Below, piece by piece: positions 2,440 through 14,843 of a stretch of DNA of 16,376 nt (position 1 is the first letter of the stretch; each line of letters begins with the position of its first letter). Source of the DNA: Candidatus Iainarchaeum sp. (lineage in GTDB: Archaea > Iainarchaeota > Iainarchaeia > Iainarchaeales > GCA-2688035). Location: the NCBI GenBank assembly GCA_028713935.1, contig JAQTNI010000032.1:1-16376 (forward strand), in the 5' to 3' direction. The notes below the pieces were generated by a model. It was not told the origin of the DNA, searched no databases, and worked only from the letters and a program-made list of their open reading frames with translations. Position numbers and translations under genes: made by a program.

Positions 2440-2522
2440 ACTGCTTCTTTGTGCGCTTATTGTTTTTTAAATCCTTGTTTGCTTTTTTTGATTTGCCTAT
2501 TGTTTTGGCAGGGCTTTTTTTT

Positions 2523-3862: not shown

Positions 3863-3934
3863 AATAGTTTTCCAGTCCCAATCCCTATTTTGAATTCAAT
3901 TTTGCCACGCTTATGTGTGTTTAAAAAAGTAAAA

Positions 3935-4180
3935 CGCAGGGACAGGGATTTGAACCCTGGCTCCCTTTCGGGAACGAGCTAGCTACTGCCCTTTTCTTTT
4001 TCTTTAGGAAAGAAAAAGAAAAGTGTAAGTTGCCCAAAAGAAAAAGAAAAAAATTCCTTTTCATGCGGGCAAAGTGAACTACAAAATTGCAAAGCAATTT
4101 TGTTTCTTTCCCAAGGCTTTCTTTGCTCTGCAAAGAAAGGCTTTAGCAGGCTCGCGCGTTAACCACTCCGCCATCCCTGC
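3935..4180 (-). tRNA. tRNA-Ser(GCU): tRNA-Ser (anticodon GCU), class II, interrupted by a 163-nt intron at the canonical 37/38 position; CCA not encoded
   Basis: Hand-folded from the reverse complement. Acceptor GCAGGGA/TCCCTGC. D arm GCG-GAGTGGTTAA-CGC. Anticodon stem CGAGC/GCTCG with loop CTGCTA|A. Long variable arm TTCCCGAAAGGGAGC. T arm CAGGG-TTCAAAT-CCCTG. Discriminator G. An A/T-rich box lies about 20-30 nt upstream (4200-4212). Confidence 0.9.
3981..4143 (-). other. tRNA-Ser intron (163 nt, junction ambiguous by 1 nt)
   Basis: This is the sequence between A37 and A38 of the folded tRNA. A UAGC segment complementary to anticodon+37 sits next to the 3' junction, as expected for a bulge-helix-bulge substrate. 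The intron contains a perfect 15-bp polypyrimidine/polypurine hairpin (3991-4023) and the repeat module at 4083-4142. Confidence 0.8.
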
Positions 4181-4253
4181 ATGTTATAGTGGCGCTAATT
4201 ATTTTTTTTAAGCAACTAATTTTAATGCTTTGTGGGAAGCAAAAGAGGGGGTT

Positions 4254-6275
4254 TTATTTGAATGCTGCGTTTTTGTCCCAGCATTCTGTGTTTAGCTTGG
4301 TGTCAGGAATCATGTCGCAGATGAACAGGTTGTTGCTGGTTATTGCGTAGTTTTTGTAGCAGAGCCAGTCAAGGCGGTAATCGCTGTAGCTGAATGCATA
4401 GTTGGGGTTGAAGATTTGGCAGGTTTGCGTGCTTTGCAGGTTTACTGCAGTGTCGAAGACGCAGTTTATCCTTGTGTACTGGTTTTCTATTCTGATGCAG
4501 AGGCTTGCGTCGTTGTTTGCCGTTGCAATGCCTTCAAAGCAGGAATCCCAGTTTGTGTAGTCCGTGAGCAGTATTTTTTCGCAAATTGAAGGGTCTTTTT
4601 TTTGTATTCCTATTATTGAATAGCAATTGTCTTTGAGGATTATGCTGTTAATTTTTTCGCAGTATTGTATTTTGCCAGTTGCCCCTGCAAGGTTTTTTTC
4701 GCAGGCATCCTTGTCCTGGGTAAAGGTCATTTCATTGCAAATTGCCTCGTTGCTGTTTGAGTCAAGCAGGCCTGCAAGAGAGTTAAGGCAGCTTCTTTTT
4801 GAATTTGAATCTGAAATCTGCCTGCATAACAGGTAGTTTTTGCTGTCTATTGCTATTTGTTCAATGCATATGTTCCTGTTTGAATCCGAAGGCAATTGCA
4901 GGCAGTCATTGATCGTTGCCGGTTCTGAAGCTATTGTTGCAAGGCATTGTTCTTTTTTTGTCCTTGAAATGAATTTTTGGCATATTTCTGGGGCTTTTGT
5001 GGAGGAAAAAATTCCCCAATAACAGTCGTCCCTTACGTAATGGTCAGTTGAATAGGATGCGCTCATCATTGCGCAGGCGCTTGTGTCTTTTTTTGCTGTT
5101 GCAACTGCCTGCAGGCAGGAGTCCCTTTCCTGGATTATTTTCTGGCTTGACTGGCTTATTCCTGCACATGCCTGTGCGTCGGAATTTTCAATTCCAATTG
5201 CATAATAGCACGAATTTTTTATTTCTTCGGAAGAAATTTTTTTGCAGGTCAATGGGTTTTCCTGGGCTTTTGCTGTTTCGTTTATGCAGTTGTCTTTTGA
5301 AAGCACTGCAAGTTTGCTGCAGAGTTCAGGATTTTTGTCTTCTATTGCTTTTTCCTGGTAACAAGCATCCTTTTGCAGTGGGCCTGTTTTTTCATTGCAG
5401 TTGTCTTGGCCCTGTGAATTATCGTCCTGGTTTGCTGGCCAGTTAAAATCAGGCGCTGAAGAAGTTTGCCTTGCCAAGGCATCAAGCCCTAAGAGGTTAT
5501 AGGCCGCAGCTGTTTTGTTTTTGGTATTGTTTTGCGCTGAACTGTAATTTGATTTTAATTGGATAATGTATTTTTCCATGTATCCTGTGCATTCGCTTTT
5601 TATTGCTTCTTTTTGGTTTTCAATTGTCTGCAAAAGGTCTTGGCTGAACTGGTTTGTGTCTTTGTTTGCGTTTGTGTCGCATAAGGCGTAAATTCCGCTG
5701 AAGCTGCTTGTCAGCAGTGTTTTTGCTGCCTGGAAATCGCTTTCAAAATTCTGGAATGTTTCCTGTGCGCTGCCAAACTTGTTTTTGTCAATTGAATTTA
5801 TTTTTTGCTGCATCAGGATTGTGCCATAAAACAGTTCAAGGCTTGCAGCCATTGAAACAAATGTTGAGCCTGTTGCCTTGGCATTTGCCTGGTCAATTTC
5901 CTGTATTGTTGTGGCCGAATTCAGGTCTGTGCCTGCAGCAACTGATTCGCCTTTGAGCCAGTTCACTATTCCAAGAAACTGGCCATAGGATTCTTTTTGG
6001 GTTTCCAATAAAAAAAGCTCTTTTTGTTTTTCAAGTTTTTTGCCTTGGTCTGTTTCCGCTGCAATCTCCGCCTGTTTTGAGGCTATTTGCGTTGCCATTA
6101 AATTGCTTGTTCCTGAATCCAAAATTTTTTCATAATAATCTGATATTGTTGAATGGAGTTTTTTGGATTGTGTCTGGATTTTGTATTCCTCCAAAGGGTC
6201 AGGAACAGGGCTTGTGCATCCAGCAAAAAAAATTGCAATCAGAATAAGCATTGCCAGCAATAAGGCTTTTTTCAT
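4254..6275 (-). CDS. Putative lipoprotein / surface protein with helical N-terminal half and about 13 tandem Cys-pair repeats
   Basis: The N-terminus MKKALLLAMLILIAIFFAGC is a signal peptide plus lipobox-like AGC. From about aa 299 (coordinates 4257-5399) there are repeats of 26-31 aa with the pattern C-x13-15-C-x10-16, e.g. CYYAIGIENSDAQACAGIS..., CYSIIGIQKKDPSICEKIL..., CFEGIATANNDASLCIRIE.... The ATG at 6275 is preferred over the TTG at 6293. Confidence 0.75.
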   Translation of the reverse strand: MKKALLLAMLILIAIFFAGCTSPVPDPLEEYKIQTQSKKLHSTISDYYEKILDSGTSNLMATQIASKQAEIAAETDQGKKLEKQKELFLLETQKESYGQFLGIVNWLKGESVAAGTDLNSATTIQEIDQANAKATGSTFVSMAASLELFYGTILMQQKINSIDKNKFGSAQETFQNFESDFQAAKTLLTSSFSGIYALCDTNANKDTNQFSQDLLQTIENQKEAIKSECTGYMEKYIIQLKSNYSSAQNNTKNKTAAAYNLLGLDALARQTSSAPDFNWPANQDDNSQGQDNCNEKTGPLQKDACYQEKAIEDKNPELCSKLAVLSKDNCINETAKAQENPLTCKKISSEEIKNSCYYAIGIENSDAQACAGISQSSQKIIQERDSCLQAVATAKKDTSACAMMSASYSTDHYVRDDCYWGIFSSTKAPEICQKFISRTKKEQCLATIASEPATINDCLQLPSDSNRNICIEQIAIDSKNYLLCRQISDSNSKRSCLNSLAGLLDSNSNEAICNEMTFTQDKDACEKNLAGATGKIQYCEKINSIILKDNCYSIIGIQKKDPSICEKILLTDYTNWDSCFEGIATANNDASLCIRIENQYTRINCVFDTAVNLQSTQTCQIFNPNYAFSYSDYRLDWLCYKNYAITSNNLFICDMIPDTKLNTECWDKNAAFK

Positions 6276-6314
6276 GGGATATAAAAGAAACAAACTAGTA
6301 TAAAAAATTGCTTT

Positions 6315-7670
6315 TCAGTGGGTTTGCACTGAAAAAATTGTTTTCAGGAAAATATCGTCTATTTTTTGGAATTCATTGGAAGGCGAAGTGAATGCAATTG
6401 AATAAACATTGTTTTTGTGCATTATGAAAAGCGCTTTTGTAATGGATTTTTGCCCCGAGTTTTCTTCTGAATATTCAAGGAAAATATTGTTGCTTGTTTC
6501 CTTTCGAAGCAAAATTTTTGAGCCTTTTTTTGACTGGATTTTTGCTATTTTTGAGGAAACAAATTTTTGAATTGCCTGGTTAAATGCCTCTGTTTTTGAC
6601 AATTCAAACCTGAACTGGCCTTGTGCAACAGCAAGAAGGGAATCAGGGGATTTTTCCCTGCTTTCAGGCCAGTCGGGATAAACAAGCGAAATGTCCCCAT
6701 CCTTGTATTGCTTTGTGTTTTTTTCAGGGCTTATTACAGGGCCTTCTTCGCTTTGTTCTTGCTCTTCTGTTTCTTCAGGCTGAGAAGACTCTTCTACTGA
6801 TTCTTCAGCAAGGTCAATTTCTTCAAGGCCTTCTTTCTTATTTTCCTCTTCAAGGGCATCTTCGCCTTCCTCAAATTTTTCTTCAAGATTGCCTTCTGTT
6901 TTTTCAGGCTCTTCAGGAGGCTCGCCCGCAAGTTCTCTTTGCCGTTTTTCCCAGTCAAGCACTTCTTTTCCGCCGGATTCTTCTGAATCTTCTTTTTTTT
7001 CTTCCGGCTCTGGCTCTTCAGGCTCTGGAATTTCTTGCTTTTCAGGCTGTCCTTCAATTGCCTCTTCTTTCTGCTCTTCTGCTTCCTCTTTTTCCTTTTC
7101 CAGTGCCTTTCTCAGCTCTTCGGTTACTTCAGCAATTTTTTTGTTTTTTGCAAGCTGTTTCTTTGCTTCCTTTTTGCTGCCGGCTGGTTTCAAAACAATT
7201 TTCTTGGCTTTTTTTTCTTTTGCCTTGGAAATTTTTTTCACTGCACTGCCCAGGGGCTTTTTTTCTTTTTGCAGAGTTGCAGTGCCGGCCATTTTTTTTA
7301 TGCCATAAAGCTCGGCAGTGTCTGATTTAAGGCGGGAGTTAATGAGGTCAATTTCTTTTTTTATTGCCTCTTGTTTTTCCTTGATATGCTTCGCGGCTTC
7401 TTTTTTCTTTTCATATTCCAGCTGTTTTTTCTGCAGGTTTCCAATCCTCTGCCTTAAGCGCGCTTCTTTTTCCGCGGTTGTTTGTTTTGCAAAAGAAACC
7501 TTTGTTTCCTCAAGAACAATCATTTTTGCAAGCAAAACAGTGAGCTTTTTTTCAAGCTTCATTTCTTTCCTGATCAGGTCAGTTGCCTTTTTTTCGCCTG
7601 CAATAATCTCCTTTGACAACAAGGCAATGTCTTTTTTCAGCAAGTTTTCAGGATGTTCAGGCTTATGCAT
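6315..7670 (-). CDS. Coiled-coil, Lys/Glu-rich protein with acidic linker and C-terminal globular domain (PsbP/Mog1-like by eye)
   Basis: Long ORF with heptad-like K/E/L-rich N-terminal half, a PEEPEPEE acidic low-complexity centre, and a C-terminal roughly 130-aa domain (ISLVYPDWPE...FLEYSEE...ALFIMHKNNVYSIAFTSPSNEF...). The ATG at 7670 lies 1 nt after the upstream gene's TGA (7672-7674). The alternative ATG at 7697 would overlap that gene by 26 nt. Confidence 0.65.
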   Translation of the reverse strand: MHKPEHPENLLKKDIALLSKEIIAGEKKATDLIRKEMKLEKKLTVLLAKMIVLEETKVSFAKQTTAEKEARLRQRIGNLQKKQLEYEKKKEAAKHIKEKQEAIKKEIDLINSRLKSDTAELYGIKKMAGTATLQKEKKPLGSAVKKISKAKEKKAKKIVLKPAGSKKEAKKQLAKNKKIAEVTEELRKALEKEKEEAEEQKEEAIEGQPEKQEIPEPEEPEPEEKKEDSEESGGKEVLDWEKRQRELAGEPPEEPEKTEGNLEEKFEEGEDALEEENKKEGLEEIDLAEESVEESSQPEETEEQEQSEEGPVISPEKNTKQYKDGDISLVYPDWPESREKSPDSLLAVAQGQFRFELSKTEAFNQAIQKFVSSKIAKIQSKKGSKILLRKETSNNIFLEYSEENSGQKSITKALFIMHKNNVYSIAFTSPSNEFQKIDDIFLKTIFSVQTH

Positions 7671-7671
7671 T

Positions 7672-8157
7672 TCAACCCCATTCCTTTGACTGCACATTAA
7701 GTCTTTCCAATTGTTTTTTCAGGAAAGCCTGGCGTTTTTTTGCTTCAAGAATCCTGATTTTTTTTTCGTCATAAATTCTTGTTATTCTTTGCAGGCAAGA
7801 AATCCTCGCCTTCAAGGCGGATTCCTCTTTTTTGGAAGAATCGGTTATCTGTTCAAGGGCTTTTTTTTCACTTGAAAAACTGCTTGCCAGGAGGCTGTTA
7901 AGCCTGTCCTCCAATTCCATTTTTCTCTGGATTTTGCCCTTAAGAAAATTTTCGTTCCCAATTATAAGCTCTCTTGTTTCCCTGATTTTTGCAGACAATG
8001 CAGCTGACTGCTCTCCAAGCTTCTTAATCGCCTTATCTGCTTTTTTGATTTTTAAAAGCTCCCTGGAAGACAATTTTTTGGATTTTTCCAGGGTTTTTGC
8101 AATTTTCTTAATCCCTTTTTTTGCTTTGGATTTTGGTTTCAGTTTTTTCTTTGCCAC
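7672..8157 (-). CDS. Lys-rich coiled-coil hypothetical protein
   Basis: 161-aa ORF with GTG start, basic N-terminus MAKKKLKPKSKAKKGIKK, the remainder predicted helical/coiled coil. It abuts the next gene on the same strand, giving an operon-like arrangement. Confidence 0.6.
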   Translation of the reverse strand: MAKKKLKPKSKAKKGIKKIAKTLEKSKKLSSRELLKIKKADKAIKKLGEQSAALSAKIRETRELIIGNENFLKGKIQRKMELEDRLNSLLASSFSSEKKALEQITDSSKKEESALKARISCLQRITRIYDEKKIRILEAKKRQAFLKKQLERLNVQSKEWG

Positions 8158-8360
8158 AATATCACTCTGCTCTTTTTTTGCAGTATAACTAATAACCTTT
8201 CACAAATATAAAAAGCTTTTGGTGGCCTTTTGCAAATCCGGTCTGCAAGCCAGAAATTGTTTATAAACTTTGCCAAATAAAAGCGTAATTTGTTTAAAAG
8301 CAAAAAAAGGCTTTTTTTGCCTTCCGAAACCTGTTTAATAGCTTGCGGTTAATAAATTAA

Positions 8361-8380
8361 AAGGCAACAATGGTTGCCTT
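8361..8380 (+). promoter_or_regulatory. Perfect 8-bp hairpin (AAGGCAAC-aatg-GTTGCCTT) 10 nt upstream of the SD of the Cys-rich peptide gene
   Basis: The inverted repeat is read directly from the sequence. The ORF-track start ATG (8370) sits in its loop. The SD GGAGGT is at 8390-8395 and the ATG at 8403. Confidence 0.3.
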
Positions 8381-8402
8381 ATCCGAAAAGGAGGTAAAAA
8401 TT

Positions 8403-8675
8403 ATGGGAAAATCTTTTTTTGGAATTCGCAATTCTCGCGGAGTAATCCCGGCACTAGCCTGGCTTGTAGTTGTTGTTTTAGCAGCAGGGGGCATAACATT
8501 TGTAGCAGGTGGCGGATGCGATGCGAGTAATACTACTCCAACTTCCCCGACATGCCCGGGCGGATCTGTCTGGAATCAATGCGCTGCAAGCTGCATGGGT
8601 GCAGGCGCAGAACATTCAGATCCCTGGAATAGCTGCATGGCTTCTTGCTTGGGAACCCCGGGAAGCCAAAAATAA
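8403..8675 (+). CDS. Small secreted or membrane-anchored Cys-rich protein with a duplicated WNxCxASC (twin CX3C) motif
   Basis: MGKSFFGIRNSRGVIPALAWLVVVVLAAGGITFVAGGGC... is a signal/anchor segment. It is followed by ...VWNQCAASCMGAGAEHSDPWNSCMASCLG. A perfect SD GGAGGT lies 7 nt upstream of the ATG at 8403. A hairpin plus T-run terminator follows the stop. Confidence 0.55.
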   Translation: MGKSFFGIRNSRGVIPALAWLVVVVLAAGGITFVAGGGCDASNTTPTSPTCPGGSVWNQCAASCMGAGAEHSDPWNSCMASCLGTPGSQK

Positions 8676-8680
8676 TGCCA

Positions 8681-8710
8681 AAGCCCCTTCAGGGCTTTTT
8701 TTATTTTTTT
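8681..8710 (+). terminator. Stem-loop plus T-run terminator
   Basis: AAGCCC-cttca-GGGCTT followed by TTTTTATTTTTTT, immediately after the stop at 8673-8675. Confidence 0.5.
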
Positions 8711-8758
8711 AAAAAAATTAACAACAGGGGCAGCCAGTGATTTTAGGCAGGGGAGCAC

Positions 8759-9739
8759 ATGCGACCGAAACTGATTTCAAGGCCAGAACTGAATGCGGAT
8801 TACATTGTTGTCTTGGAAGATAATCCAACTAATCCTGATTTGTCCTGGGCAGATAAATACTCTTATGATGCAGTTGCATCAGAATTACTGCGCCCTCTTG
8901 CCAGCCCAGAATCTTTTTATGCTAATCCAAAATGGCCCTACCTTGGAGAAAAAGATTATCAGGCAGTAGCAAGATATTTTAAGTTGCTTGGCAAGTTTTC
9001 AGAACACAATATCCCATTGGCATTTCCTGATATTGTTGTCCCGCCAAAAGACGTTGCAGAGGCTGAACAGCGCTATCGCGTAAAAAATCGTGCGCCCTAT
9101 ACAGTGGGCGGCACTGGACTGGCAGCAGCTCTTTTAGGCCTGGCATCGTGGCAATCAAAAAAAATTTTTTCGCGCAGGAAATTATTGAGAAAGGGCTTGG
9201 CATTAGGCGCAGCAGCTACAGGCGCTTCTTCTTCAGTAGAATTGGCTCGGCGCTTAGTGTCTTCGAAAGTAATTGGCCTGGAAGGCAGAAGCGCGCTTAT
9301 TGCGTATCGCTGCGAAGATGTTTTGGCTCCATTATTGGCAGCAAGGATTAGAACAAGGTCGGGCATGGCAGCCAAGCTAAGGAGAAAACCAATTGTTGTT
9401 TTGCATATCGATAAGGGGCATGAGGACGTGATTAAATTTTTAGAGAACAAAAAATTACGCATGGAAACCATTCAAAGCTTTGCACCGGAAATACAAGCGC
9501 TTCTTTCTTCAAGAATTTATGGGCGCTTTCTGCGGGAAATGTATATTTTCCAATTTGGCAGGTATAAATGGCGCCGCAAAAAAGTTTCAGACAGTTTGTT
9601 TATAAAAGGCTTTAAACCAAAGGGCGAGAGTTCACAGGCTGGTTTTTCGCGCCGTGACTTGCTGGCAGCTGCTTTTGGTGCCCACAGGGAAAGGCCTGCC
9701 CAAGCACAGCAGCACAGAAATAAGCCCAGGCGCATATAA
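8759..9739 (+). CDS. Orphan hypothetical protein (326 aa) with two internal twin-arginine-like motifs
   Basis: Longest ORF in a locally GC-rich (about 50%) segment. No family recognised. Contains FSRRKLLRKGLALGAAATGASS (mid-protein) and FSRRDLLAAAFGA (near the C-terminus). Confidence 0.5.
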   Translation: MRPKLISRPELNADYIVVLEDNPTNPDLSWADKYSYDAVASELLRPLASPESFYANPKWPYLGEKDYQAVARYFKLLGKFSEHNIPLAFPDIVVPPKDVAEAEQRYRVKNRAPYTVGGTGLAAALLGLASWQSKKIFSRRKLLRKGLALGAAATGASSSVELARRLVSSKVIGLEGRSALIAYRCEDVLAPLLAARIRTRSGMAAKLRRKPIVVLHIDKGHEDVIKFLENKKLRMETIQSFAPEIQALLSSRIYGRFLREMYIFQFGRYKWRRKKVSDSLFIKGFKPKGESSQAGFSRRDLLAAAFGAHRERPAQAQQHRNKPRRI

Positions 9740-9772
9740 GCACAAGCTTTTTTGCAAACAAGAAATCAGCAG

Positions 9773-10093
9773 TTACAACTTCATCCTGAAATATTTTTCC
9801 AAGACCTTTTTTTCGCGTTCCATGAATTTTGCAGTTGCCTTGTGTGTTCCGGATGAAAACACAAATTTTACAAGGCAAAGAAGCATTGCGCCATACAAAA
9901 GCAAATCAACAACAACAACCTGCACAGCAAGAGTCCAGTTAAAATTTGCAGGAATCACAGGAGTTCCAGAAACAAAAGGCGACTGCTGCGCAGAGCTTAA
10001 AGCCAAAAAAAACACCAAAGCGCAAACAACCACTGCAACAACAACAAGGCCAGCATATTCAAAAGCAATGCCTTTTCTTTCCTCAATCATCAT
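9773..10093 (-). CDS. Small membrane protein with a possible class III (type IV pilin-like) signal peptide
   Basis: MMIEERKG|IAFEYAGLVVVAVVVCALVFF resembles archaeal prepilin signals (basic residues, then G, then a short polar stretch with E, then a hydrophobic helix). It has a second hydrophobic segment near the C-terminus. The ATG at 10093 is preferred to the TTG at 10138, which would run into the repeat element. Confidence 0.45.
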   Translation of the reverse strand: MMIEERKGIAFEYAGLVVVAVVVCALVFFLALSSAQQSPFVSGTPVIPANFNWTLAVQVVVVDLLLYGAMLLCLVKFVFSSGTHKATAKFMEREKKVLEKYFRMKL

Positions 10094-10135
10094 GCAAAAT
10101 AATTGTTTCTGCCAGTTAATAAGCCTTTTGAAGCG

Positions 10136-10348
10136 CAACTTTTTCGGAGCGCTCGCAAGCTTGCTTTCAAAAAGTTGACAAAAATTTCGCTTTCAAAAGC
10201 CTTGGGAAAAAATAAAAAATTTACGCCTTTTGAAGCCAGCCTTTTCTTAAAAAGAACATTGCAAAACCAAAGGTTTTGCGATGCCTCAAAAAGCATTTGG
10301 CTTTTTAAGGAAGCCTGGGGAAAAGAATTTTTGCTAACACAAAAATGC
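10136..10348 (+). repeat. Composite structured repeat element (leader-type copy 1)
   Basis: 10136-10177 is CAACTTTTTCGGAGCGCTCGCAAGCTTGCTTTCAAAAAGTTG, about 37/43 identical to 14553-14594. Downstream are the hairpin GCAAAACC-aaa-GGTTTTGC (10261-10279), GGCTT..AAGCC, then CTGGGGAAAAGAA and the hairpin ATTTTTG-ctaaca-CAAAAAT (10299-10348). The order matches the 14553-14843 element. Confidence 0.6.
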
Positions 10349-10458
10349 TTCGTAAAACACCCAAAACAAACGGTTTTTATGGCTTTTCAGGGATTTAAAA
10401 CATATCCAATCCCAAAATTTTTATAGTTGAAAGTAACAGTAATTATTATGGTGGTGCC

Positions 10459-10890
10459 ATGGTTTGGCCATTCTCAAAAAACAAATCAGAAAAACAGGAA
10501 AAAGTCTGCATTCCCGAAGCCAGAAAAGCAATTGACGAAGAAGAAGCAAGGCTCAAAAAAATAGAAAACGAGCAAAAAACAAAAGAACAGCAAATGCAGG
10601 AAAACCTCAAAAAAATAGAACTGCCTGTTTTTACGGACAGCAAGCCAAGATTATTCATAGAAGGGGTTTTTGCAGTTTCAAGCACACTAATGCTCAAAGG
10701 AACAGTTGTTTCAGGAAAAATAACAAAAACAAGCAAACTAAAAATAAAAAAGAAAATCTTCAAAGTAAAAGACCTGCAGTTAAAAGGAAAAAACACAGGT
10801 GCACTACTCGCAGGCCAAAGAGGCGCAATTTTCTTTGAAAAAGCAAAAGGATTATATCTAAGGCAAGGAGACATAATCTCCTTCAACTAA
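10459..10890 (+). CDS. Hypothetical protein: N-terminal charged helix plus C-terminal beta-barrel resembling translation-factor domain 2 (EF-Tu D2-like)
   Basis: LFIEGVFAVSSTLMLKGTVVSGKITKTSKLKIKKKIFKVKDLQLKGKNTGALLAGQRGAIFFEKAKGLYLRQGDIISF follows the EF-Tu domain II pattern (V..VF...G.V.sG.v.sG.i..g..v.....k..V.si......v..A.aG..vgi.l.g.....i..GD.i). Similarity judged by eye only. Confidence 0.55.
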   Translation: MVWPFSKNKSEKQEKVCIPEARKAIDEEEARLKKIENEQKTKEQQMQENLKKIELPVFTDSKPRLFIEGVFAVSSTLMLKGTVVSGKITKTSKLKIKKKIFKVKDLQLKGKNTGALLAGQRGAIFFEKAKGLYLRQGDIISFN

Positions 10891-10901
10891 AAATTATCAA
10901 T

Positions 10902-11137
10902 GCACGGGTAGGGAAGCGGTCAAACCCGCGAGACTCAAGAGGCCTTTTCTTGGCAAGAAAAGCCCTGGGAAAAGAAACTTTTTTCTTTTGGAAAAAAGTG
11001 AAGTTCGCTTCGCTCACAGCTTTTTCTCTAAAGAGAAAAACCTGGGAAAAAGAGGAATTTTTGCTTTGCAAAAATTTTATTTGTTTGAGCTATCTCGTCG
11101 CTTAGTGCGTTCGGCGGTTCGATCCCGCCCCCGTGCA
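10902..11137 (+). tRNA. tRNA-Leu(CAA): tRNA-Leu (anticodon CAA), class II, interrupted by a 152-nt intron at 37/38; CCA not encoded
   Basis: Acceptor GCACGGG/CCCGTGC. D arm GGG-AAGCGGTCAAA-CCC. Anticodon stem CGAGA/TCTCG with loop CTCAAG|A. Variable arm TCGCTTAGTGCGTTC. T arm GGCGG-TTCGATC-CCGCC. Discriminator A. Confidence 0.9.
10940..11091 (+). other. tRNA-Leu intron (152 nt, junction ambiguous by 1 nt)
   Basis: Lies between G37 and A38. A UUUG segment able to pair with CAAG (anticodon+37) sits 4 nt before the 3' junction. Made almost entirely of hairpins: CTTTTCTT-ggc-AAGAAAAG (10944-10962), TTTTTTC-tttt-GGAAAAAA, GAAG-TTCG-CTTC (11000-11011), TTTTTCTCT-aa-AGAGAAAAA (11021-11040), TTTTTGC-ttt-GCAAAAA (11058-11074). 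Confidence 0.8.
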
Positions 11138-11237
11138 ATCTCATTCTGGGATATATACATATCACTTTTTTGGACTGTGTTTTAAGAAGATTTATCTCGC
11201 AACTAATAATTCAACATATCTCATTTTGAAGAAATAG

Positions 11238-12257
11238 TTAGCTTGCTTTTGAAGCTTCAAAAAGACCAGTGTAAATTAAAATATCTTTAAATCCGAAAGA
11301 CTTATTCTGGCAAATAAATGCTGTGTTCTCTTTATTTCTTGTGCATTCGCAATAGTTTAGTGGCGAAATGTTTTGGGTTAGGAAATCCGCAATTAAATCT
11401 TTTGTAATACGTTGTTGTTGAAATTCAAAATAATTTTGGTCATTGGCAATGCTCAATCGAATATTAGTATACTGTTTACTTAAACTATCCCTGTTCGGGT
11501 TCTCGTAAGGTATTTCAAAATAAGAAAATTTTGGGGCTGCAACCTCACAACCGTATTCGCAACGAACATAAGTCTCAGGAAACACTTTGGTTTTTATGAT
11601 TATAATCCCAGTATTTGCTCCAAAATTTCTTTGCGTCAAATCATTATTATCGGCTATTGTTTTTTCAGCATTAGAAATAATTTTAAATTCTCTATTTGTA
11701 CAATCGGCTGTCCCTTCGTCAAAGAACATCGGCAAAGAATATCCAAAGCTAATGATTGTAAAAAGTAAAATCCCGGCGCCCCCTAATATTGCTGCCTGTT
11801 TTTCTTTCTCCTTGCCAATGGCAATATTATAAACTGCAATAGCTGTTAGTCCAAAACAAGCTAAAGCAATAGAAAACACAAAAACAATGGGGCTACCCAA
11901 AACTGCGAGTATTGCCCCGTACGCCAAATTCCAAATAATAAACACGTAAAGTGCCATATCTAGAATAGAGATATTCCCCTTGACTGGGAACAAAAAGTAA
12001 ATAGCAATAAAAAGAACACCAACAACTATTGCGCCTGGCAAATAACCATTGAAGAGAGCCAGACAAAATGCCATAAACAGGGCTACAACAAAACAAGATA
12101 TGCTGACGCCCAATGCAACATATTTTTTATACAAATAACTTGCGGCATAGGAGATTATCTTTTTTAGCATAAAAAAAAGGTCTTTTGCTTTTTGTATAAG
12201 CCAACTTTTTATCTTAAGGATTTTTGAATACAACCTTGAAATCATTCGTGAAGCCAT
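11238..12257 (-). CDS. Hypothetical polytopic membrane protein with a C-terminal Cys-containing soluble domain
   Basis: 339-aa ORF with about 5 hydrophobic helices in the N-terminal 180 aa, followed by a polar domain (CTNREF...VRCEYGCEV...YCECTRNKENTAFIC). A TATA-like box lies 20-33 nt upstream of the ATG. Locally lower GC (about 30%). Confidence 0.65.
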   Translation of the reverse strand: MASRMISRLYSKILKIKSWLIQKAKDLFFMLKKIISYAASYLYKKYVALGVSISCFVVALFMAFCLALFNGYLPGAIVVGVLFIAIYFLFPVKGNISILDMALYVFIIWNLAYGAILAVLGSPIVFVFSIALACFGLTAIAVYNIAIGKEKEKQAAILGGAGILLFTIISFGYSLPMFFDEGTADCTNREFKIISNAEKTIADNNDLTQRNFGANTGIIIIKTKVFPETYVRCEYGCEVAAPKFSYFEIPYENPNRDSLSKQYTNIRLSIANDQNYFEFQQQRITKDLIADFLTQNISPLNYCECTRNKENTAFICQNKSFGFKDILIYTGLFEASKAS

Positions 12258-12410
12258 TTACATATGTCGTTGCTAATAATTTTTTAAGCCCACTCTTCAA
12301 ACAGCCGCATTCTTTATTTTTTCAGTATTTGTTTTCCCTTTTTCTGTAATCTGGTAAATGCGGATTGTTTTTTCTTTTGGTGTGGGCGTTTTGCAGGCGC
12401 TGAAAAATTG

Positions 12411-12440
12411 AATTAAAAAAAATTAAAAAAATTAAAAAAA
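12411..12440 (-). terminator. Three tandem (T7-8 AAT) runs: oligo-T terminator for the 12455-12826 gene
   Basis: The plus strand reads aattaaaaaa aattaaaaaa attaaaaaaa. On the minus strand these are three consecutive T-runs beginning 15 nt after the stop codon. Archaeal termination uses oligo-T tracts. Confidence 0.4.
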
Positions 12441-12454
12441 GAAGAAAGGGCGGG

Positions 12455-12826
12455 TTAAACGAATTTTGTTATTGTTGAATCGTTTTTTCCCACGTATATG
12501 AATGGATACAATCTGGTTCCGCCGATTGTCTGCAATTTGAGGAAATAGTATTGGTTTGGCTTCAGGTCTTGAAAAACCAGTGTGCCGTTTGTAGTGCTAA
12601 CATAGCCCCTTGTTTCACCGCCCCAAAATCCAACTTGTGCATAGAGAGTCCCTACAACATTTCTTGGGTTTCCAAAGCCAGTGACATTAATGCTCAGGCT
12701 GACTTTTTGTGGGGCTTGCGAAAAATTTCCAGTGTTTGTTCCTCTCACACCCCAAGCAAAAGCCGAAGATGAAAAAACAAGCAATGCAAGCAAAGACAGA
12801 GCCAAAAATGCGATTGATTTTTTCAT
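12455..12826 (-). CDS. Small secreted protein (Sec signal peptide; beta-rich)
   Basis: MKKSIAFLALSLLALLVFSSSAFA|WG is a signal peptide with an AxA cleavage site. The SD GGGGTGAT lies 4 nt upstream of the ATG. The mature part is Gly/Thr/Val-rich (...GTLVFQDLKPNQYYFLKLQT...). Confidence 0.65.
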   Translation of the reverse strand: MKKSIAFLALSLLALLVFSSSAFAWGVRGTNTGNFSQAPQKVSLSINVTGFGNPRNVVGTLYAQVGFWGGETRGYVSTTNGTLVFQDLKPNQYYFLKLQTIGGTRLYPFIYVGKNDSTITKFV

Positions 12827-13044
12827 TTAATCACCCCTTTTTAACATTAAACAATTAAGCCAGGAAAATGTTTTTAATTCTTGGTTTCCAATCCAATTTT
12901 TTCAGAATTGGATTTGAAACAGTGCTTATACAAATAGGGCTTTTTTTAATTAAATAACCAAACTTTCTGAAAGGAAAGCTTAAAAGTTTCAGGAAGCTTT
13001 CACAAATAAATTGCTTTTTATGCTTTTCTTTTCTCATTTAATTC

Positions 13045-13185
13045 ATGAATATTGGGGCAATTTTTTTTGTAGCTGGCTTTTTGGTGTCATTGGCTGCAAT
13101 AACCCCGAATTTTTTAATGCTATTGATTGGCTGCGGAGTAATGGCTGCGGGCTTATTGGTAATGCAAACGAACTGGGGTGAATAA
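13045..13185 (+). CDS. 46-aa hydrophobic micro-protein (two predicted TM segments) directly abutting rpl41e
   Basis: Not in the ORF track (shorter than 60 aa). MNIGAIFFVAGFLVSLAAITPNFLMLLIGCGVMAAGLLVMQTNWGE. Its TAA stop is immediately followed by the rpl41e ATG (TAAATG). A TTTTTATG box lies about 29 nt upstream of the ATG. Confidence 0.35.
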   Translation: MNIGAIFFVAGFLVSLAAITPNFLMLLIGCGVMAAGLLVMQTNWGE

Positions 13186-13317
13186 ATGGGCAAGCGGAAA
13201 AGGGATTCCAGCAGATTCAAAAAGACAAGGGCAAGGCAGCGCTGGAAATGGAAAAAGAAAAAGATGCGCAGAAAAAAGCGCAGAAAAAGATACCTGCGGC
13301 AAAGAGCAAGGGCATAA
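13186..13317 (+). CDS. rpl41e: Ribosomal protein L41e (eL41)
   Basis: Not in the ORF track (43 codons). MGKRKRDSSRFKKTRARQRWKWKKKKMRRKKRRKRYLRQRARA. The RWKWKKKKMRRKKRRKR...RQR core matches the eL41 pattern (eukaryotic [25 protein letters not shown]; archaeal homologues carry an N-terminal extension). Confidence 0.75.
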   Translation: MGKRKRDSSRFKKTRARQRWKWKKKKMRRKKRRKRYLRQRARA

Positions 13318-13376
13318 AGGCCTTTTCTTCCCAAGAAAAGCCCTGGGAAAAGAATTTTTTTGCCTTGCAAAAAAAC
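13318..13376 (+). repeat. Repeat-family copy immediately 3' of rpl41e
   Basis: AGGCCTTTTCTTcccAAGAAAAGCCCTGGGAAAAGAA (13318-13354) is 35/37 identical to the 5' end of the tRNA-Leu intron (10940-10976). It is followed by the hairpin TTTTTTTGC-ctt-GCAAAAAAA, as in 11058-11074. Confidence 0.65.
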
Positions 13377-13432
13377 TTTTTATTTTTGCAAACCGCTTTG
13401 TTTTTTCGGTTTGCTTTTTCAATTCTTTTTTT

Positions 13433-14371
13433 TCAAAAGATTTTTGCAATCCAGGTGTAGTACAGGATAATCATGCCTGCTATAAAAAGCAAATTGTGAA
13501 AGTAAAGGATTTTGTACATTTTTTTCATGTCGCTTTCCTGGGGGTTTCTCAGGGCAGGCTTGTAAAGCGGAATTGAAAATAAAGAGAGAAATCCCAATAA
13601 CAAAAATCTGTGGGGCCAGAAACCAAAAAATCGCAGCCCTGGAAGCCATTGCCAGAAAAAACTGTTAGTGCACAACAACAAATAAGCAATTCCGCCTGCA
13701 AGCAAAACAATATAGCAAATCCAGCGCAATTTTCTTTCAGGAAAACAGACAACGCTGCTCTTGTAATTCATCTGCTTGTCATGCTTTGTAGAGCTGACCC
13801 TGTACAATCCATAACCGCCAAACTGCAATCCAAGAATAAAAATCAATGCAAGGATAGGCGCATTGAATGCGGGAACAAACAATGTCCAGCCGGCATAAAA
13901 CCTGAAAACAGGGTTTACTAGCGAGCCTGAAATCAAATCAAGCACTGGCCTTTTTTTGAAATTAAACGGCTTCATTGTGTAAAGAATCTGGTTTACAAGC
14001 ATTATGAAGAGGCAGAGCAGATACAAAAACGAGCCGTTAATAAAAAACCCGATTGCAAGTGCAATTAAAACCAGTGCAATTGAAAAAACCAAAGCAACTT
14101 TTGCAGGCACCCTGCCAGAAGGAATTGCACGCGCTTTTTTAATCGGGTGCAATGCATCTGCTTTCCTGTCAGTATAATCATTAAGCGCATAAAGCCCGCT
14201 CCAGAGCAATGCAATCCCTGCAAAGCCGATTGCAAATTTTATCGGGTCAAGGGCAATTCCAAAAACAATTCCCGCTGTAATTGCTGCAACAACCATGTTT
14301 GCAAAGCTCTTGCTCCATTCCATTGGCCGCATGAGCGAAACAAGGCCCCTGATAAAAACAAAAAAAGACAT
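13433..14371 (-). CDS. UbiA-family membrane prenyltransferase (divergent)
   Basis: Polytopic membrane protein (about 8 hydrophobic helices) with the first Asp-rich motif LNDYTDRKADALHPIKKARAIPSGRV (NDxxDxxxD...RP/IPSG), typical of UbiA/DGGGP-synthase-type enzymes. The second Asp-rich motif is degenerate, so the substrate cannot be assigned. Confidence 0.7.
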   Translation of the reverse strand: MSFFVFIRGLVSLMRPMEWSKSFANMVVAAITAGIVFGIALDPIKFAIGFAGIALLWSGLYALNDYTDRKADALHPIKKARAIPSGRVPAKVALVFSIALVLIALAIGFFINGSFLYLLCLFIMLVNQILYTMKPFNFKKRPVLDLISGSLVNPVFRFYAGWTLFVPAFNAPILALIFILGLQFGGYGLYRVSSTKHDKQMNYKSSVVCFPERKLRWICYIVLLAGGIAYLLLCTNSFFWQWLPGLRFFGFWPHRFLLLGFLSLFSIPLYKPALRNPQESDMKKMYKILYFHNLLFIAGMIILYYTWIAKIF

Positions 14372-14501
14372 GACAAAATAACAAATCAGGAAAGGATTAA
14401 TAAATATTTTCTTTGAATTATTTAAAAACCGGAAACAAATTCAATTTTTTTCTGGCAGGTTTTGGGAATTTGGACAGCAAAGCTTTTTAAAGACAAGCCC
14501 G

Positions 14502-14522
14502 ATAATAAATAATATAATAATT
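14502..14522 (+). promoter_or_regulatory. A/T-rich TATA-like block, candidate rRNA operon promoter
   Basis: ATAATAAATAATATAATAATT lies about 30-50 nt upstream of the conserved leader stem-loop at 14553 and about 450 nt upstream of the 16S 5' end. Position-based inference only. Confidence 0.3.
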
Positions 14523-14552
14523 GAGCCTAATTGCATTGTGCAAACAATGCAG

Positions 14553-14843
14553 AAACTTTTTCGGAGCGCTCACAATGTTCGCTTCCAAAAAGTTTGCAAA
14601 AAGTGCGAATTTTACCAGCTTTGCTGGGAGCTTAAAAGCTTTTGAATGAGAAAGAAGCATAGGCTTTGCCTTGTGCTTTTATTATCAAAAATCAAAAGCA
14701 ATTATGGCTCGCAATTGTGAGTGCCAAAGTTTTTTTTGGCATGATGCAGGCTGAAAAAATCGCTTTTCATAGGACATTTGGTTACAAGCTTTTCTTTGAA
14801 AAAGAAAAGTTTGCAAAAGAAAGATTTTTGCCAAAGCAAAAAT
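14553..14843 (+). repeat. Composite structured repeat element (leader-type copy 2) in the 16S rRNA leader
   Basis: 14553-14594 is AAACTTTTTCGGAGCGCTCACAATGTTCGCTTCCAAAAAGTTT, a homologue of 10136-10177. 14786-14843 is AAGCTTTTCTTTgaaAAAGAAAAGTTTGCAAAAGAAAGATTTTTGCcaaaGCAAAAAT, with the same hairpin / A-rich spacer / TTTTTGC-hairpin architecture as the intron modules. Confidence 0.55.

Follow-up and report, generated by a model that had tools for sequence, protein, structure and literature searches.

A two-hairpin interspersed repeat forms the conserved 5' core of long tRNA introns in an Iainarchaeota-type DPANN lineage

We describe a previously uncatalogued two-hairpin repeat of ~57 nt, a real family that recurs through the genome of a small archaeon, Candidatus Iainarchaeum sp., and those of its relatives, and that is the conserved 5' core of this lineage's unusually long tRNA introns. 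The window, by which we mean the whole 16,376-nt stretch of contig JAQTNI010000032.1, holds five full copies scoring 39-74 bits with a covariance model that was seeded with relatives' copies plus one window copy (13318-13374, trimmed) and run on the window without filters. The proposal of a preliminary description, that modular hairpin-rich copies in this DNA form one family, is thus borne out. The elements and their host genes are as follows.

13318-13374, plus strand: full repeat unit; 73.6 bits with the covariance model (in seed)
10940-10999, plus strand: full unit beginning with the first nucleotide of the tRNA-Leu(CAA) intron; 64.1 bits, outside the seed
11017-11075, plus strand: the tRNA-Leu intron's second unit, belonging to another sub-type; 55.3 bits
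4083-4143, minus strand: full unit beginning with the first nucleotide of the tRNA-Ser(GCU) intron; 52.4 bits
14786-14843, plus strand: 16S rRNA leader unit, with the 16S 5' end ~130 nt downstream; 38.8 bits
10283-10348, plus strand: diverged sub-type ("variant B"); 24.3 bits (10298-10345) and BLAST
3975-4052, minus strand: second triplex-type element in the tRNA-Ser intron; triplex-motif scan and fold
3934-4181, minus strand: tRNA-Ser(GCU) gene with a canonically placed intron of 163 nt; ARAGORN with introns allowed, Rfam tRNA 38.8 bits
10901-11138, plus strand: tRNA-Leu(CAA) gene with a 152-nt intron; ARAGORN with introns allowed
13186-13317, plus strand: small basic ORF of 43 aa (MGKRKRDSSRFKK...), taken as rpl41e; ORF list

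Helix 1 of the unit (~11 bp) runs from a 5' AAGCC or AGGCC through a pyrimidine arm, a 3-4-nt loop and a purine arm to GCC-YU, and has a conserved C·C mismatch that 100 of 114 distinct copies retain. Next come a purine tract, GGG-A(n)-G-A(n), that mirrors the helix 1 purine arm in sequence, and helix 2, with a U-rich arm, GC, a loop, GC and an A-rich arm. The mismatch, the mirrored tract and the unit's place as the core of tRNA introns had all been missed in the preliminary description. In the copy that begins 1 nt past the rpl41e stop codon (TAA, 13315-13317), helix 1 reads AGGCC-UUUUCUU-ccc-AAGAAAA-GCCCU, the tract is GGGAAAAGAA and helix 2 is U7GC-cuu-GCA7; its minimum-energy fold consists of two hairpins with the tract unpaired. 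The first tRNA-Leu intron unit has a variant helix 2 (ACUUUUUU-cuuuugg-AAAAAAGU), and in its minimum-energy fold the pyrimidine arm pairs with the purine tract instead; as previously claimed, these two copies are identical at 35 of 37 positions (10940-10976 versus 13318-13354), with both differences (GGC versus CCC) confined to the loop. Other sub-types are represented by the second tRNA-Leu unit (UUUUUCUC / GAGAAAAA / AAAAAGAG; fold z-score -3.0) and by the tRNA-Ser unit (UUUCUUUGC / GCAAAGAAA / AAAGAAAC; z-score -3.7), and L012, the closest relative, has a sub-type near-identical to the latter in its tRNA-Leu intron. The 16S-leader unit (z-score -4.0) is a variant in which UUUGCA replaces YUGGG and the C·C mismatch is absent.

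The likeness among these copies could in principle be a chance product of low-complexity A/T-rich homopolymer tracts, a reading to which we give virtually no weight. Some fold z-scores are indeed unremarkable (-0.6 to -1.1 for three copies, and several copies fold no better than shuffles), and a low-complexity stretch inside a coding gene (2793-2848) reaches 25.5 bits with the covariance model. Against this, all five full copies lie above the top score of 30.8 bits in 607 kb of bacterial control DNA, and genomes of Iainarchaeota-type DPANN archaea, the lineage to which the family is specific and in which it is abundant, contain 144 matches in 473 kb, with compensatory changes. Chance is also excluded by 200 dinucleotide shuffles of the window, in which a two-part pattern matched twice in the real sequence has an expectation of 0.00, and a pyrimidine-purine-purine (Y-R-R') triplex motif found at 6 loci occurs 0.13 times on average (sd 0.45). 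The bacterial and shuffled controls together refute the chance reading. A repeat finder grouped 10940-10997, 11018-11075, 13318-13375 and 14785-14842 in register. Searching Rfam 15 with the repeat returned no matching family, and no viral link of the family was found.

Not every element first assigned to the family belongs to it in full. The putative copy at 10299-10348 is kin to relatives' copies by BLAST, the segment 10237-10345 being 82-85% identical to copies L034, L073 and L032 of another genome (which score 42-46 bits), and on this ground we class it as a diverged sub-type; it is not a full copy, its 24.3 bits being on a par with the coding low-complexity match and below the control maximum. 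This variant B has a purine-first hairpin, CCUCAAAAAGC-auuug-GCUUUUUAAGG, followed by AAGCCUGGGGAAAAGAA and a decayed helix 2. A supposed degenerate copy at 10191-10215 is unsupported (the covering match, 10157-10222, scores 10.8 bits, E=0.24), and the word GTTCAC, once listed as a family part, is absent from relatives' copies; a similar word in L121 is part of the conserved 16S leader.

Both hairpins show compensatory changes. All 19 helix pairs have changes on both sides, 97.3% of paired cells in the alignment are complementary versus 80.2% in shuffles, and the covariation score is 0.393 versus 0.119 when shuffled and at most 0.119 with partners slid, in an alignment that was fitted to the covariance model's own structure. 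The two hairpins proposed earlier are genuine; the YTGGG tract between them is single-stranded only in part, as its YU forms covarying pairs with the AA or AG with which the unit opens on its 5' side. On the sense strand G·U pairs outnumber A·C pairs (20 versus 9), a weak hint of selection at the RNA level.

The two host tRNA genes are real. The intron of tRNA-Leu(CAA) is composed of two units and a short UUCG hairpin, and that of tRNA-Ser(GCU) hosts the unit at 4083-4143 and the element at 3975-4052. We note that ARAGORN at default settings misses the tRNA-Ser(GCU) gene. Across the lineage, all 17 intron copies, in 15 tRNA genes with at least eight anticodons, are in the sense orientation and begin at intron nucleotides 1-3. 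The shortest of the lineage's long tRNA introns consist of one unit and a few nucleotides, as in tRNA-Thr(CGU), where introns of 65-66 nt comprise one unit plus ~6 nt. Among orthologous Ser(GCU) introns from four genomes and Leu(CAA) introns from three, only the unit is conserved, and the remainder varies in sequence and in length (83-163 nt).

Outside tRNA genes, 16 units adjoin the stop codon that ends an open frame of 40 or more codons, and, relative to ORFs of at least 100 aa, 10 of 34 sense distances lie between -1 and +2 nt, the nearest antisense distance being 12 nt. The small ORF taken as rpl41e has no match in Pfam; its L121 ortholog (42 aa) has a unit of another sub-type directly after it, and in all, rpl41e has a unit behind it in three genomes, with a different sub-type in each. 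The sense orientation noted for the tRNA introns, the rpl41e 3' flank and the 16S leader holds, but it does not extend to all placements, as sense and antisense 3' flanks are equally frequent (31 versus 33, for ORFs of at least 100 aa) and some arrays run opposite to both neighbouring genes (e.g., L119 6764-6870). A general link to the translation apparatus likewise fails, since stop-adjoining copies in relatives follow genes of many functions, which we take from our own reading of the sequences to be FtsZ-like, a putative uL23, Sec61-beta-like, L41e, zinc-ribbon and several membrane proteins. Units occur singly or as tandem arrays (e.g., L014, L142), and both sub-types and positions turn over among relatives; the related L121 leader lacks a unit at the position of the 16S-leader unit.

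These placements bear on whether the units are terminators or RNA-processing signals, with U-rich hairpin arms after stop codons ending transcripts, possibly bidirectionally between convergent genes, or with the hairpin and UGGGAAA forming a cleavage site for a processing nuclease. Units that begin at stop codons, the many that lie between convergent genes (18 "same, opposite" cases), T-runs on both strands, and arrays in one genome that end with GGGAAAAGAAAUUUUCCC and then U9 would all fit. We nonetheless think such a role improbable, and termination signals, raised at the outset, unlikely, because at least 15 tRNA genes, which need read-through, contain units with T5-T9 runs; stop-adjoining copies do not generally have a U-run behind helix 2, and by inspection no bulge-helix-bulge (BHB) motif can be drawn around the rpl41e copy.

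The Y-R-R' order of the unit resembles the fold-back triplex motif of E. coli BoxC/PIT, the triplex itself being putative. In the scan the arms are 8 nt with no mismatch at 13318-13374, 10940-10999 and 4083-4143, 8/8 at 11017-11075, and 9 nt with one mismatch at 14786-14843. Intrastrand triplex motif repeats of the BoxC/PIT/TMECO type, for which Hoyne et al. 2000 is reportedly a source, are the closest analog. Known from E. coli and from further bacteria (Holder et al. 2015, PMC4666352), they are, like the unit here, short interspersed repeats in which one strand carries a pyrimidine arm, loop, purine arm, linker and second purine tract (a "class II" purine-motif fold-back triplex) and the complement a matching pyrimidine-motif arrangement; the loops are least conserved, and the many copies per genome vary among close relatives. 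Unlike them, the archaeal unit is A/U-rich rather than CCCTCNCCC/GGGNGAGGG, its triplex is read from sequence, and it always has a second hairpin, a conserved C·C mismatch and a YUGGG junction.

The copies might accordingly be an archaeal, A/T-rich counterpart of these repeats, selfish or promoting genome plasticity with no RNA role, in which single-stranded sense DNA (Y-loop-R-linker-mirror R') would fold back, in the course of replication or transcription, into an intrastrand triplex of the purine motif; tRNA genes would then owe their orientation bias to the block that such a triplex on the template strand would pose to RNA polymerase. We regard this as possible, if rather unlikely. The excess of motifs over shuffles and the in vitro demonstration of a DNA triplex for the like architecture of TMECO (PMC4666352) speak for it, and the turnover among relatives fits it. 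So does the mirror relation, which covaries among sub-types (class I, 99 of 113 identities versus 81.9, sd 3.8, with 0 of 20000 permutations as high; with the first A-run matched, tails 29 of 35 versus 22.4, sd 2.3, p=0.004) and is also present in the model-based alignment. The permutation p-values are optimistic, however, because sub-types are not phylogenetically independent, and a linker-independent comparison gave 65 mirror versus 59 direct matches. Moreover, the covarying base pairs of helix 1 (model positions 1-27, 2-26 and 3-25) leave no loop before GGG, so the mirror register requires opening of lower helix 1; variant B and many class II units have GGGAAAAGAA but no mirror partner for it; and TMECO lacks strand bias and a fixed distance to genes, unlike the strict sense placement in tRNA introns and the exact stop-codon adjacency seen here.

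Alternatively, the triple helix could form in RNA, with the purine tract of the main unit, or the upstream pyrimidine tract of the second tRNA-Ser intron element, lying in the groove of helix 1 as a nuclease-resistant compact knot, which would lend stability to mRNA 3' ends and to introns after excision or circularisation, a function like that of ENE/MALAT1. The second element, on the tRNA strand, has a pyrimidine tract UUUCUUUUUCUUUU, a linker and CUUUUCUUUUUCUUU-ccu-AAAGAAAAAGAAAAG, a pyrimidine-motif order without the GCC/YUGGG signature of the family; the scan finds it on the plus strand at 3991-4049 with 15-nt arms and one mismatch, nothing comparable occurs in any of 200 shuffles, and it folds at -29.1 kcal/mol (z-score -3.7). 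Besides the mirror statistics, which apply equally, the RNA strand is indicated by the strict sense orientation in transcripts, the C·C mismatch goes together by inspection with GGG (those few copies whose base is fully paired carry GCA or GCG), and the 14-15-nt Y-Y-R arrangement on the tRNA-Ser sense strand has a geometry known to form in RNA (PMC7583470). Likenesses to ENEs (PMC7583470) lie in the homopurine tract beside a U-rich helix, the location at RNA ends where exonuclease protection would make sense, and, for the second element, two U-rich strands and one A-rich strand. ENEs, though, hold an A-rich tract between two U-rich internal-loop strands through U·A-U triples, and the main unit would combine one U-rich with two A-rich strands, a purine motif not known to form in RNA; no sequence or Rfam similarity to ENE/MALAT1 was found. 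Purine-motif triplexes form in DNA, not RNA, and are linked to local genome instability (PMC4666352); work cited there and in PMC7583470, the consulted text of which describes no natural purine-motif example, has them exclude RNA strands. With the missing loop between helix 1 and GGG as a shared problem, we find an RNA triplex quite doubtful.

We favor, with confidence evenly balanced, the view that the copies are a lineage-specific interspersed structured repeat, transcribed within host RNAs and acting in cis at the RNA level as a two-hairpin block. Thermoproteales offer a parallel in similar introns spread among tRNA genes by "intron transposition" (Fujishima et al. 2010, as relayed in PMC4090602): near-identical introns occur across anticodons within a lineage, removal is by protein-dependent BHB splicing and spread is inferred at the DNA level. 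Here, what the introns share is a discrete structured unit at their 5' end, found also in mRNA flanks and an rRNA leader, with all intron copies at the canonical position and in a DPANN lineage. Bacterial REP/BIME elements are also alike, as untranslated imperfect palindromes of 20-40 nt, mostly 3' intergenic, single or in tandem arrays; the units here lack a GTAG-type 5' tetranucleotide and do not alternate in orientation. Co-transcribed REP hairpins are thought to stabilise the mRNA upstream, and REPs are not known from tRNA introns.

Under this favored explanation, the repeat would be transcribed as part of tRNA introns, stop-codon flanks and the rRNA leader, the long introns being removed through the archaeal BHB pathway. 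Folding autonomously, the block may keep long introns and untranslated flanks compact, prevent mispairing with the tRNA body or splice motif, cap RNA ends and influence RNA fate. On the DNA level it would multiply by duplication, recombination or gene conversion among copies, with the anticodon-loop splice position and stop-codon flanks as sites where a sense-oriented insert is tolerated or useful. The equal sense and antisense 3'-flank frequencies, the arrays opposed to both neighbours, the unremarkable folds and the model-fitted alignment all count against it; the unconserved 16S-leader position is as compatible with a selfish or neutral element as with a functional one, and a pure two-hairpin role leaves the mirror-symmetric tract, invariant GGG and conserved C·C mismatch unexplained. 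Of the origins first suggested, that from an intron, or as a miniature repeat element, is still a live one, now for one family with many copies. On our best reading, the repeat would be comparable to REP or BoxC elements, and would be one that builds tRNA introns.

Parsing 93 distinct units for their general form, we find that helix 1 opens with AAGCC, or with AGGCC in introns; a loop of 3-4 nt joins its pyrimidine arm to the purine arm, after which comes GCC-(C/U)U. GGG and an A-rich purine tract make up the middle of the unit. Helix 2 has a U-rich 5′ arm and an A-rich 3′ arm, each separated from the loop by GC. The basal pairs of helix 2 vary freely, with CCA/UGG, CG/CG, GC/GC and AU/AU among the combinations seen. 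With a plain MAFFT alignment as input, RNAalifold returned a poor consensus in which helix 2 was misaligned, and we therefore specified the structure by hand and built a covariance model of 56 positions and two helices from ten seed copies, nine from other genomes and the copy after rpl41e (13318-13374), several of them cut by 1-2 nt for equal length.

In an unfiltered run of this model on the window, the five full copies score 73.6, 64.1, 55.3, 52.4 and 38.8 bits. We regard these five as secure because of how their scores compare with two noise levels: 25.5 bits for a low-complexity two-hairpin mimic, the coding stretch GGGUCUUUUUUUGGAAAAAAAAUUUUUAAGGAAAAAUUCUUUUUCCUGAAAAAAGA at 2793-2848 (+) within the VTT-domain ORF 2451-3170, and a ceiling of 30.8 bits in bacterial DNA (607 kb of loci pre-selected for the purine tract plus helix 2 pattern). 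A repeat finder likewise places 10940-10997, 11018-11075, 13318-13375 and 14785-14842 in a single family, in register, and the proposal of one repeat family in the preliminary description is upheld for the five full copies. Its copy at 10299-10348 is real but diverged: the model gives only 24.3 bits (10298-10345), and BLAST finds 82-85% identity between 10283-10348 and three copies of another genome, which is why we retain it. The degenerate copy proposed at 10191-10215 finds no support, its region scoring 10.8 bits. Judged by fold-energy z-score alone, several copies are indistinguishable from shuffled sequence; chance resemblance is nonetheless excluded by the dinucleotide-shuffle control that had been proposed, as the pattern of tract plus helix 2 has two window matches against 0.00 in 200 shuffles, and a triplex motif six loci against 0.13 (sd 0.45). 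We also note that AGCCTTTTCTTAAAAAGAAC at 10232-10262 resembles a decayed helix 1 of another unit, with an intact counterpart, CAGCCUUUUCUUAAAAAAGAAAAGCCUGGGG, in a locus of another genome (L031), and that the region 10140-10350 seems to contain several unit remnants.

Both helices are under covariation. Among 114 distinct sequences in a model-derived alignment, standard pairs occupy 97.3% of cells, compared with 80.2% when partners are shuffled; two-sided changes occur at 19/19 pairs; and the covariation score is 0.393, against 0.119 for shuffled partners and at most 0.119 with partners slid by 1-3 columns. This alignment was fitted to the covariance model, which favours the structure, yet we find both helices convincing because the effect is large and the arm sequences are many and distinct. 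The compensatory changes for which a covariance model had been suggested are thus present in both hairpins. The pairing extends to the junction: the YU that precedes GGG is paired with the two nucleotides that start the unit, as A-U in 89-94 sequences and as G-C or C-G in 10-16. A C·C mismatch in helix 1 is flanked by two G-C pairs in 100/114 sequences. On the sense strand there are 20 G·U and 9 A·C pairs, an excess that is weak evidence for the sense RNA as the putatively selected strand. By inspection, a fully paired helix-1 base without C·C goes with GCA or GCG in place of GGG in four or five copies, as in the following.

Copies without the C·C mismatch, in the window and in loci from other genomes
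Window, 14786-14843: copy in the 16S leader
L133, 4212-4267: copy without C·C
L134, 1916-1962: copy without C·C
L157, 2000-2052: copy without C·C

Because these copies have GCA or GCG rather than GGG, their sequences hint, on a very small number of cases, that GGG and the mismatch interact. Two other assignments were considered and rejected: a K-turn or C/D-box, because inspection showed neither RUGAUGA nor CUGA boxes, nor a conserved GA as the 5′ flank, and a Shine-Dalgarno role for GGGAAAAG, which has no complementarity to the expected CCUCC (the 16S 3′ end itself lies outside the window).

In our scans the repeat is lineage-specific. Searching one genome per species for exact matches to a pattern yielded 111 loci, of which 26 are archaeal and come from metagenome-assembled genomes; their labels include four Iainarchaeum or 'ainarchaeum', several 'uncultured archaeon', one Woesearchaeota and one Micrarchaeota, and several of these genomes account for four to nine loci apiece. 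Another 45 loci came from a scan of metagenomes. In 473 kb of these archaeal sequences the covariance model has 144 matches at E<0.001, in 123 distinct contexts, a density of about one every 4 kb. The bacterial loci among the 111 were rejected as chance matches or one conserved coding stretch, and many Flavobacteriaceae matches in the first scan are unrelated, looking like a single conserved protein-coding stretch that we take to be dnaE. A viral or mobile-element origin was also rejected: two pattern scans of viral contigs gave two and zero matches, none recognised by the model, and one of the two (L159) falls within an ORF. Rfam 15 matched only SSU rRNA and tRNA, with nothing on the units in the window or its relatives even at E up to 5; the architecture, which the preliminary description had not recognised as a described RNA family, thus matches no Rfam family. 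A literature search found no paper on Iainarchaeota tRNA introns, which does not prove that there is none. Arrays of units occur in loci of other genomes (L014, L025, L128 and L142); in three from one genome (L014 2282-2440, L142 44-275 and L128 6265-6502) they are head-to-tail, with three to four repeats of a hairpin plus GGGAAAGAAAG, and some such arrays terminate in a GNRA-loop hairpin, GGGAAAAGAAAUUUUCCC, followed by U9.

Two of the structural RNA genes of the window carry long introns.

Structural RNA genes of the window
14972 to window end: archaeal 16S rRNA gene (Rfam)
Complement of 3934-4181: tRNA-Ser(GCU) with a 163-nt intron (ARAGORN with long introns; Rfam tRNA, 38.8 bits)
10901-11138 (+): tRNA-Leu(CAA) with a 152-nt intron (ARAGORN with long introns)

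Further genes code for a ThiI/NFACT-R protein, an Fe/Mn superoxide dismutase, a VTT-domain protein and a UbiA prenyltransferase. ARAGORN at default settings reports zero tRNAs in the window, and both tRNA genes are seen only when introns of up to 400 nt are allowed; tRNAs are probably under-counted in genome annotations of the Iainarchaeum lineage. The closest sequence retrievable, L012, is a contig of 'Candidatus Iainarchaeum archaeon DeMMO3_25' that is syntenic with the window at 77-80% identity.

Among the 93 parsed units, 17 lie within tRNA introns, in 15 genes and all on the tRNA strand. The hosts are Leu-CAA, Leu-UAA, Ser-GCU, Ser-GGA, Ala-UGC, Thr-CGU, Thr-UGU and Val-CAC, and two further Ala-CGC introns also have a unit. 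Intron units always start at intron nucleotides 1-3, and the tRNA-Thr(CGU) introns, at 65-66 nt, are a single unit plus about six nucleotides. Between orthologous introns (Ser-GCU in four genomes, Leu-CAA in three) only the ~58-nt unit is conserved, with the remainder unalignable and lengths of 83-163 nt. The unit itself can differ in sub-type, the Leu intron having 4-A and 5-A forms in the window and a 3-A form in L012, the type found in the Ser intron of the window; such differences between orthologous introns imply that copies have replaced or converted one another. The intron position is canonical, one nucleotide 3′ of the anticodon, and the tRNA folds without the intron (by ARAGORN, and with Rfam tRNA spanning the introns). 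By inspection, exon CUCAA could form a helix with a UUGAG close to where the Leu intron ends, with no inner helix h′ of a bulge-helix-bulge (BHB) motif evident other than helix 1; minimum-energy folds show no clean BHB.

Several of these introns have additional sequence features. In the Leu introns of the window (10998-11017) and L012 (about 675-700), and in a third locus, L088 (about 7170-7190, minus strand), a short conserved stretch, GUUCGCUUCGCUCAC, lies 3′ of the unit; in the window it has the form of a GUGAAG-UUCG-CUUCGC hairpin. The words GUUCGCUUC and GCUCAC reappear in permuted order in a leader repeat at 14566-14586. The SO_2017_SWC_5-type genome has a third conserved hairpin, GCGAAUUGCA-nn-UGCAAUUCGC (variants GGCAAUUGCAAUGCAAUUGC and GGAAUUGCCUUGCAAUUCC), after intron units (L039 5625-5650 and 6480-6510; introns of L141, L119 and L130).

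The preliminary description offered termination signals as one explanation of the modules. A role as intrinsic terminators is contradicted by units with T5-T9 runs inside tRNA introns, where T-runs reach T9 within tRNA genes, and a consistent U-run after helix 2 is absent. Runs of 5-9 T are found within tRNA introns of the window and of L043, L039 and L061, an example being AATTTTTTTTTG in the Ser intron of L043; in these organisms either such runs terminate transcription poorly or structure masks them.

Outside introns the units are mostly intergenic. Sixteen adjoin the stop codon of an open frame that runs in their own direction for 40 codons or more, UAA often overlapping the start of AAGCC; 10 of the 34 sense distances to long ORFs are -1 to +2 nt, and the smallest antisense distance is 12 nt. 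A unit directly follows rpl41e in the window, in L012 and in a further related locus, L121, with a different sub-type in each. The proteins encoded before stop-abutting units presumably include FtsZ-like, uL23, Sec61-beta-like, L41e, zinc-ribbon and membrane proteins. Because the genes next to units have such diverse functions, the link to the translation apparatus seen in the preliminary description was an accident of this window. There is no orientation bias in the 3′ flanks of long ORFs as a whole (31 sense, 33 antisense units), and some arrays are oriented against both neighbouring genes. The unit in the 16S leader is not fixed in place either, as the related L121 leader has a unit-like stretch elsewhere, and a BHB motif could not be drawn around the rpl41e copy. 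A second repeat, AACTTTTTCGGAGCGCTC(G/A)CAA..GCTT(T/C)CAAAAA, with a potential 12-13-bp hairpin, occurs at 10137-10173 and 14554-14590 (81% identical), one copy about 300 nt upstream of the ORF at 10459 and tRNA-Leu, the other some 400 nt before the 16S gene; TATA-like, AT-rich stretches precede both copies, and the two sites may share the repeat as a promoter-proximal leader element. The intergenic stretch between two minus-strand ORFs contains, at 12409-12447, a short A-rich tandem, AAAAAATTAAAAAAATTAAAAAAAG.

The arms and the tract of the unit are related in a further way: in the parsed units the purine tract is the purine arm of helix 1 read in reverse.

Purine arms of helix 1 and the purine tracts that go with them
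Purine arm AAGAAAA: tract AAAAGAA
Purine arm AAAGAAA: tract AAAGAAA
Purine arm GAGAAAA: tract AAAAGAG
Purine arm GAGAAAAA: tract AAAAAGAG
Purine arm GCAAAGAAA: tract AAAGAAAC
Purine arm GAAAGAAA: tract AAAGAAAG
Purine arm GAAAAAAA: tract AAAAAAAG

The resulting core of pyrimidine arm, purine arm and mirrored tract (Y-R-R′) spans 37-45 nt, as in AGGCCUUUUCUUCCCAAGAAAAGCCCUGGGAAAAGAA. Over 14 informative class I types, whose lineages are not mutually independent, mirror identities number 99/113 against 81.9 (sd 3.8) on permutation, and the observed number is reached in none of 20000 permutations; the result from the model-based alignment is similar. In register, such a mirror would give antiparallel G·G-C and A·A-T triplets. 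A simpler model, in which GGGA(n)G, as a direct repeat of the arm, pairs with the pyrimidine arm, was set aside, as it leaves the tail of the tract unexplained. Because that model predicts A(n)G but not the tail, we tested the tail alone: beyond the shared A(n)G, 29/35 positions are identical against 22.4 (sd 2.3) for equal A-runs (p=0.004; the types are not independent). The alternative hairpin of pyrimidine arm and GGGA(n)G can form in all sub-types, and for one copy it is the fold of lowest energy; a switch between the two hairpins, possible on these predicted folds, is kept as a caveat that may explain part of the mirror signal.

Polymerase-based processes yield direct or inverted rather than mirror repeats, and the covarying mirror relation for that reason suggests selection for what would be a triple-stranded fold. 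We scanned for perfect pyrimidine-purine hairpins of at least 7 bp with a mirror tract within 14 nt and at most one mismatch, and five of the six window loci recovered are family copies; the order pyrimidine, loop, purine, loop, purine is general across the 93 parsed units. A linker-independent count over all pyrimidine-purine hairpins is noisy (65 mirror, 59 direct matches), and many class II (U6GC/GCA6) units, together with variant B, the diverged sub-type at 10283-10348, carry GGGAAAAGAA without a mirror partner. Of the short free loops (1-6 nt) that fold-back of the third tract calls for, loop 1 has 3-4 nt, but in the second connector, GCC-YU-GG, YU and C are paired with the 5′ flank and covary. 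With these basal pairs formed, GGG is not preceded by any free loop, and the tract could fold back in the mirror register only if the lower helix opened. The triplex potential of the unit is real as far as its sequence goes. The sixth locus of the scan, at 3975-4052 (-) in the 3′ part of the tRNA-Ser intron, is a separate element with 15-nt arms and without the GCC/YUGGG signature; its order on the tRNA strand is pyrimidine, pyrimidine, purine, a geometry able to form U·A-U triples in RNA, and the shuffles contain nothing comparable.

The nearest known architecture is that of TMECO, the E. coli BoxC/PIT repeat, with the consensus CCCTCNCCC-N3-6-GGGNGAGGG-N3-GGGNGAGGG, which among intrastrand triplexes of class II (purine motif) is the best-known example; its DNA folds into a stable triplex in vitro, and it goes with local genome variability and has neither demonstrated promoter or terminator activity nor strand bias (PMC4666352). 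Our unit has the tract order of that class and the mirror of the purine arm, except in the many class II units and variant B. However, its arms are U/A-rich (UUUUCUU, UUUCUUU) and do not match the consensus, so that it is the same kind of architecture but a different family. A BoxC-like DNA triplex would explain the mirror symmetry best, and avoidance of a template-strand triplex could account for orientation bias. A functional RNA triplex in the unit would be the most novel outcome, but it conflicts with published chemistry, in which purine-motif triplexes are stated not to form in RNA, whereas pyrimidine-motif ones do (PMC4666352); a review of RNA triple helices likewise cites evidence both for and against RNA third strands in the purine motif (PMC7583470). 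We consider it rather unlikely that the unit is an intramolecular triple helix in which the triplex itself is selected, as a purine-motif RNA triplex or a non-template-strand DNA triplex coupled to transcription, with tRNA introns, mRNA 3′ flanks and an rRNA leader built around it and C·C plus GGG as the hinge that would open the lower helix for fold-back.

Other known systems resemble the unit in part. Like REP/BIME elements, which are extragenic imperfect palindromes of 20-40 nt, it is mostly intergenic and occurs singly or in arrays, but its 5′ flank is AAGCC or AGGCC rather than their GTAG-type tetranucleotide; REP elements also have a cognate REP-associated tyrosine transposase (RAYT). 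As regards MITEs, which have terminal inverted repeats and target-site duplications, the only terminal symmetry of the unit is AAGCC...GCCUU, in which GCC is direct and not inverted, and no filled and empty orthologous sites could be aligned. In an ENE, two U strands of a U-rich internal loop clamp an A-rich tract, whereas the main unit combines one U-rich strand with two A-rich ones; the Y-Y-R composition occurs only in the element at 3975-4052 (-). Unit-bearing introns share the canonical position of archaeal BHB-spliced introns, and a summary of Fujishima et al. 2010 describes intron families shared among tRNA genes in Thermoproteales (PMC4090602). Related concepts are thus already known, in BoxC/PIT repeats, REP elements and shared Thermoproteales intron families.

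Taken as a whole, the units fit a lineage-specific interspersed structured repeat with two helices under selection, which serves as a building block of the tRNA introns of the lineage. As an autonomously folding block, the unit would keep long introns and flanks compact and cap RNA ends, while spreading at the DNA level. We judge the chances of such an RNA-level role in cis, combined with DNA-level spread, to be about even, and favour it over a purely DNA-level account because of the strict sense orientation and fixed 5′ splice-site position of intron units, their conservation while the rest of the intron turns over, and the exact abutment of other units on stop codons.

Even if it were only a neutral repeat, the unit would be of use for marking the lineage, and a hazard for annotation. 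With a model of it, tRNAs such as those missed here by default tRNA finding would be easier to annotate in metagenome-assembled genomes of DPANN (Nanobdellati) archaea, which include Iainarchaeota. Fold-back triplex repeats, so far bacterial and without a known role, are extended to archaea in a strand-specific, transcribed setting, which makes the in vivo formation and relevance of such motifs, as RNA or DNA, directly testable; the link between a triplex-type repeat and tRNA introns is a main point of interest. The unit is also a clear case of a discrete structured module common to the introns of many tRNA species and to non-tRNA transcripts, and as such bears on the origin, spread and persistence of archaeal tRNA introns and on the function of excised introns.
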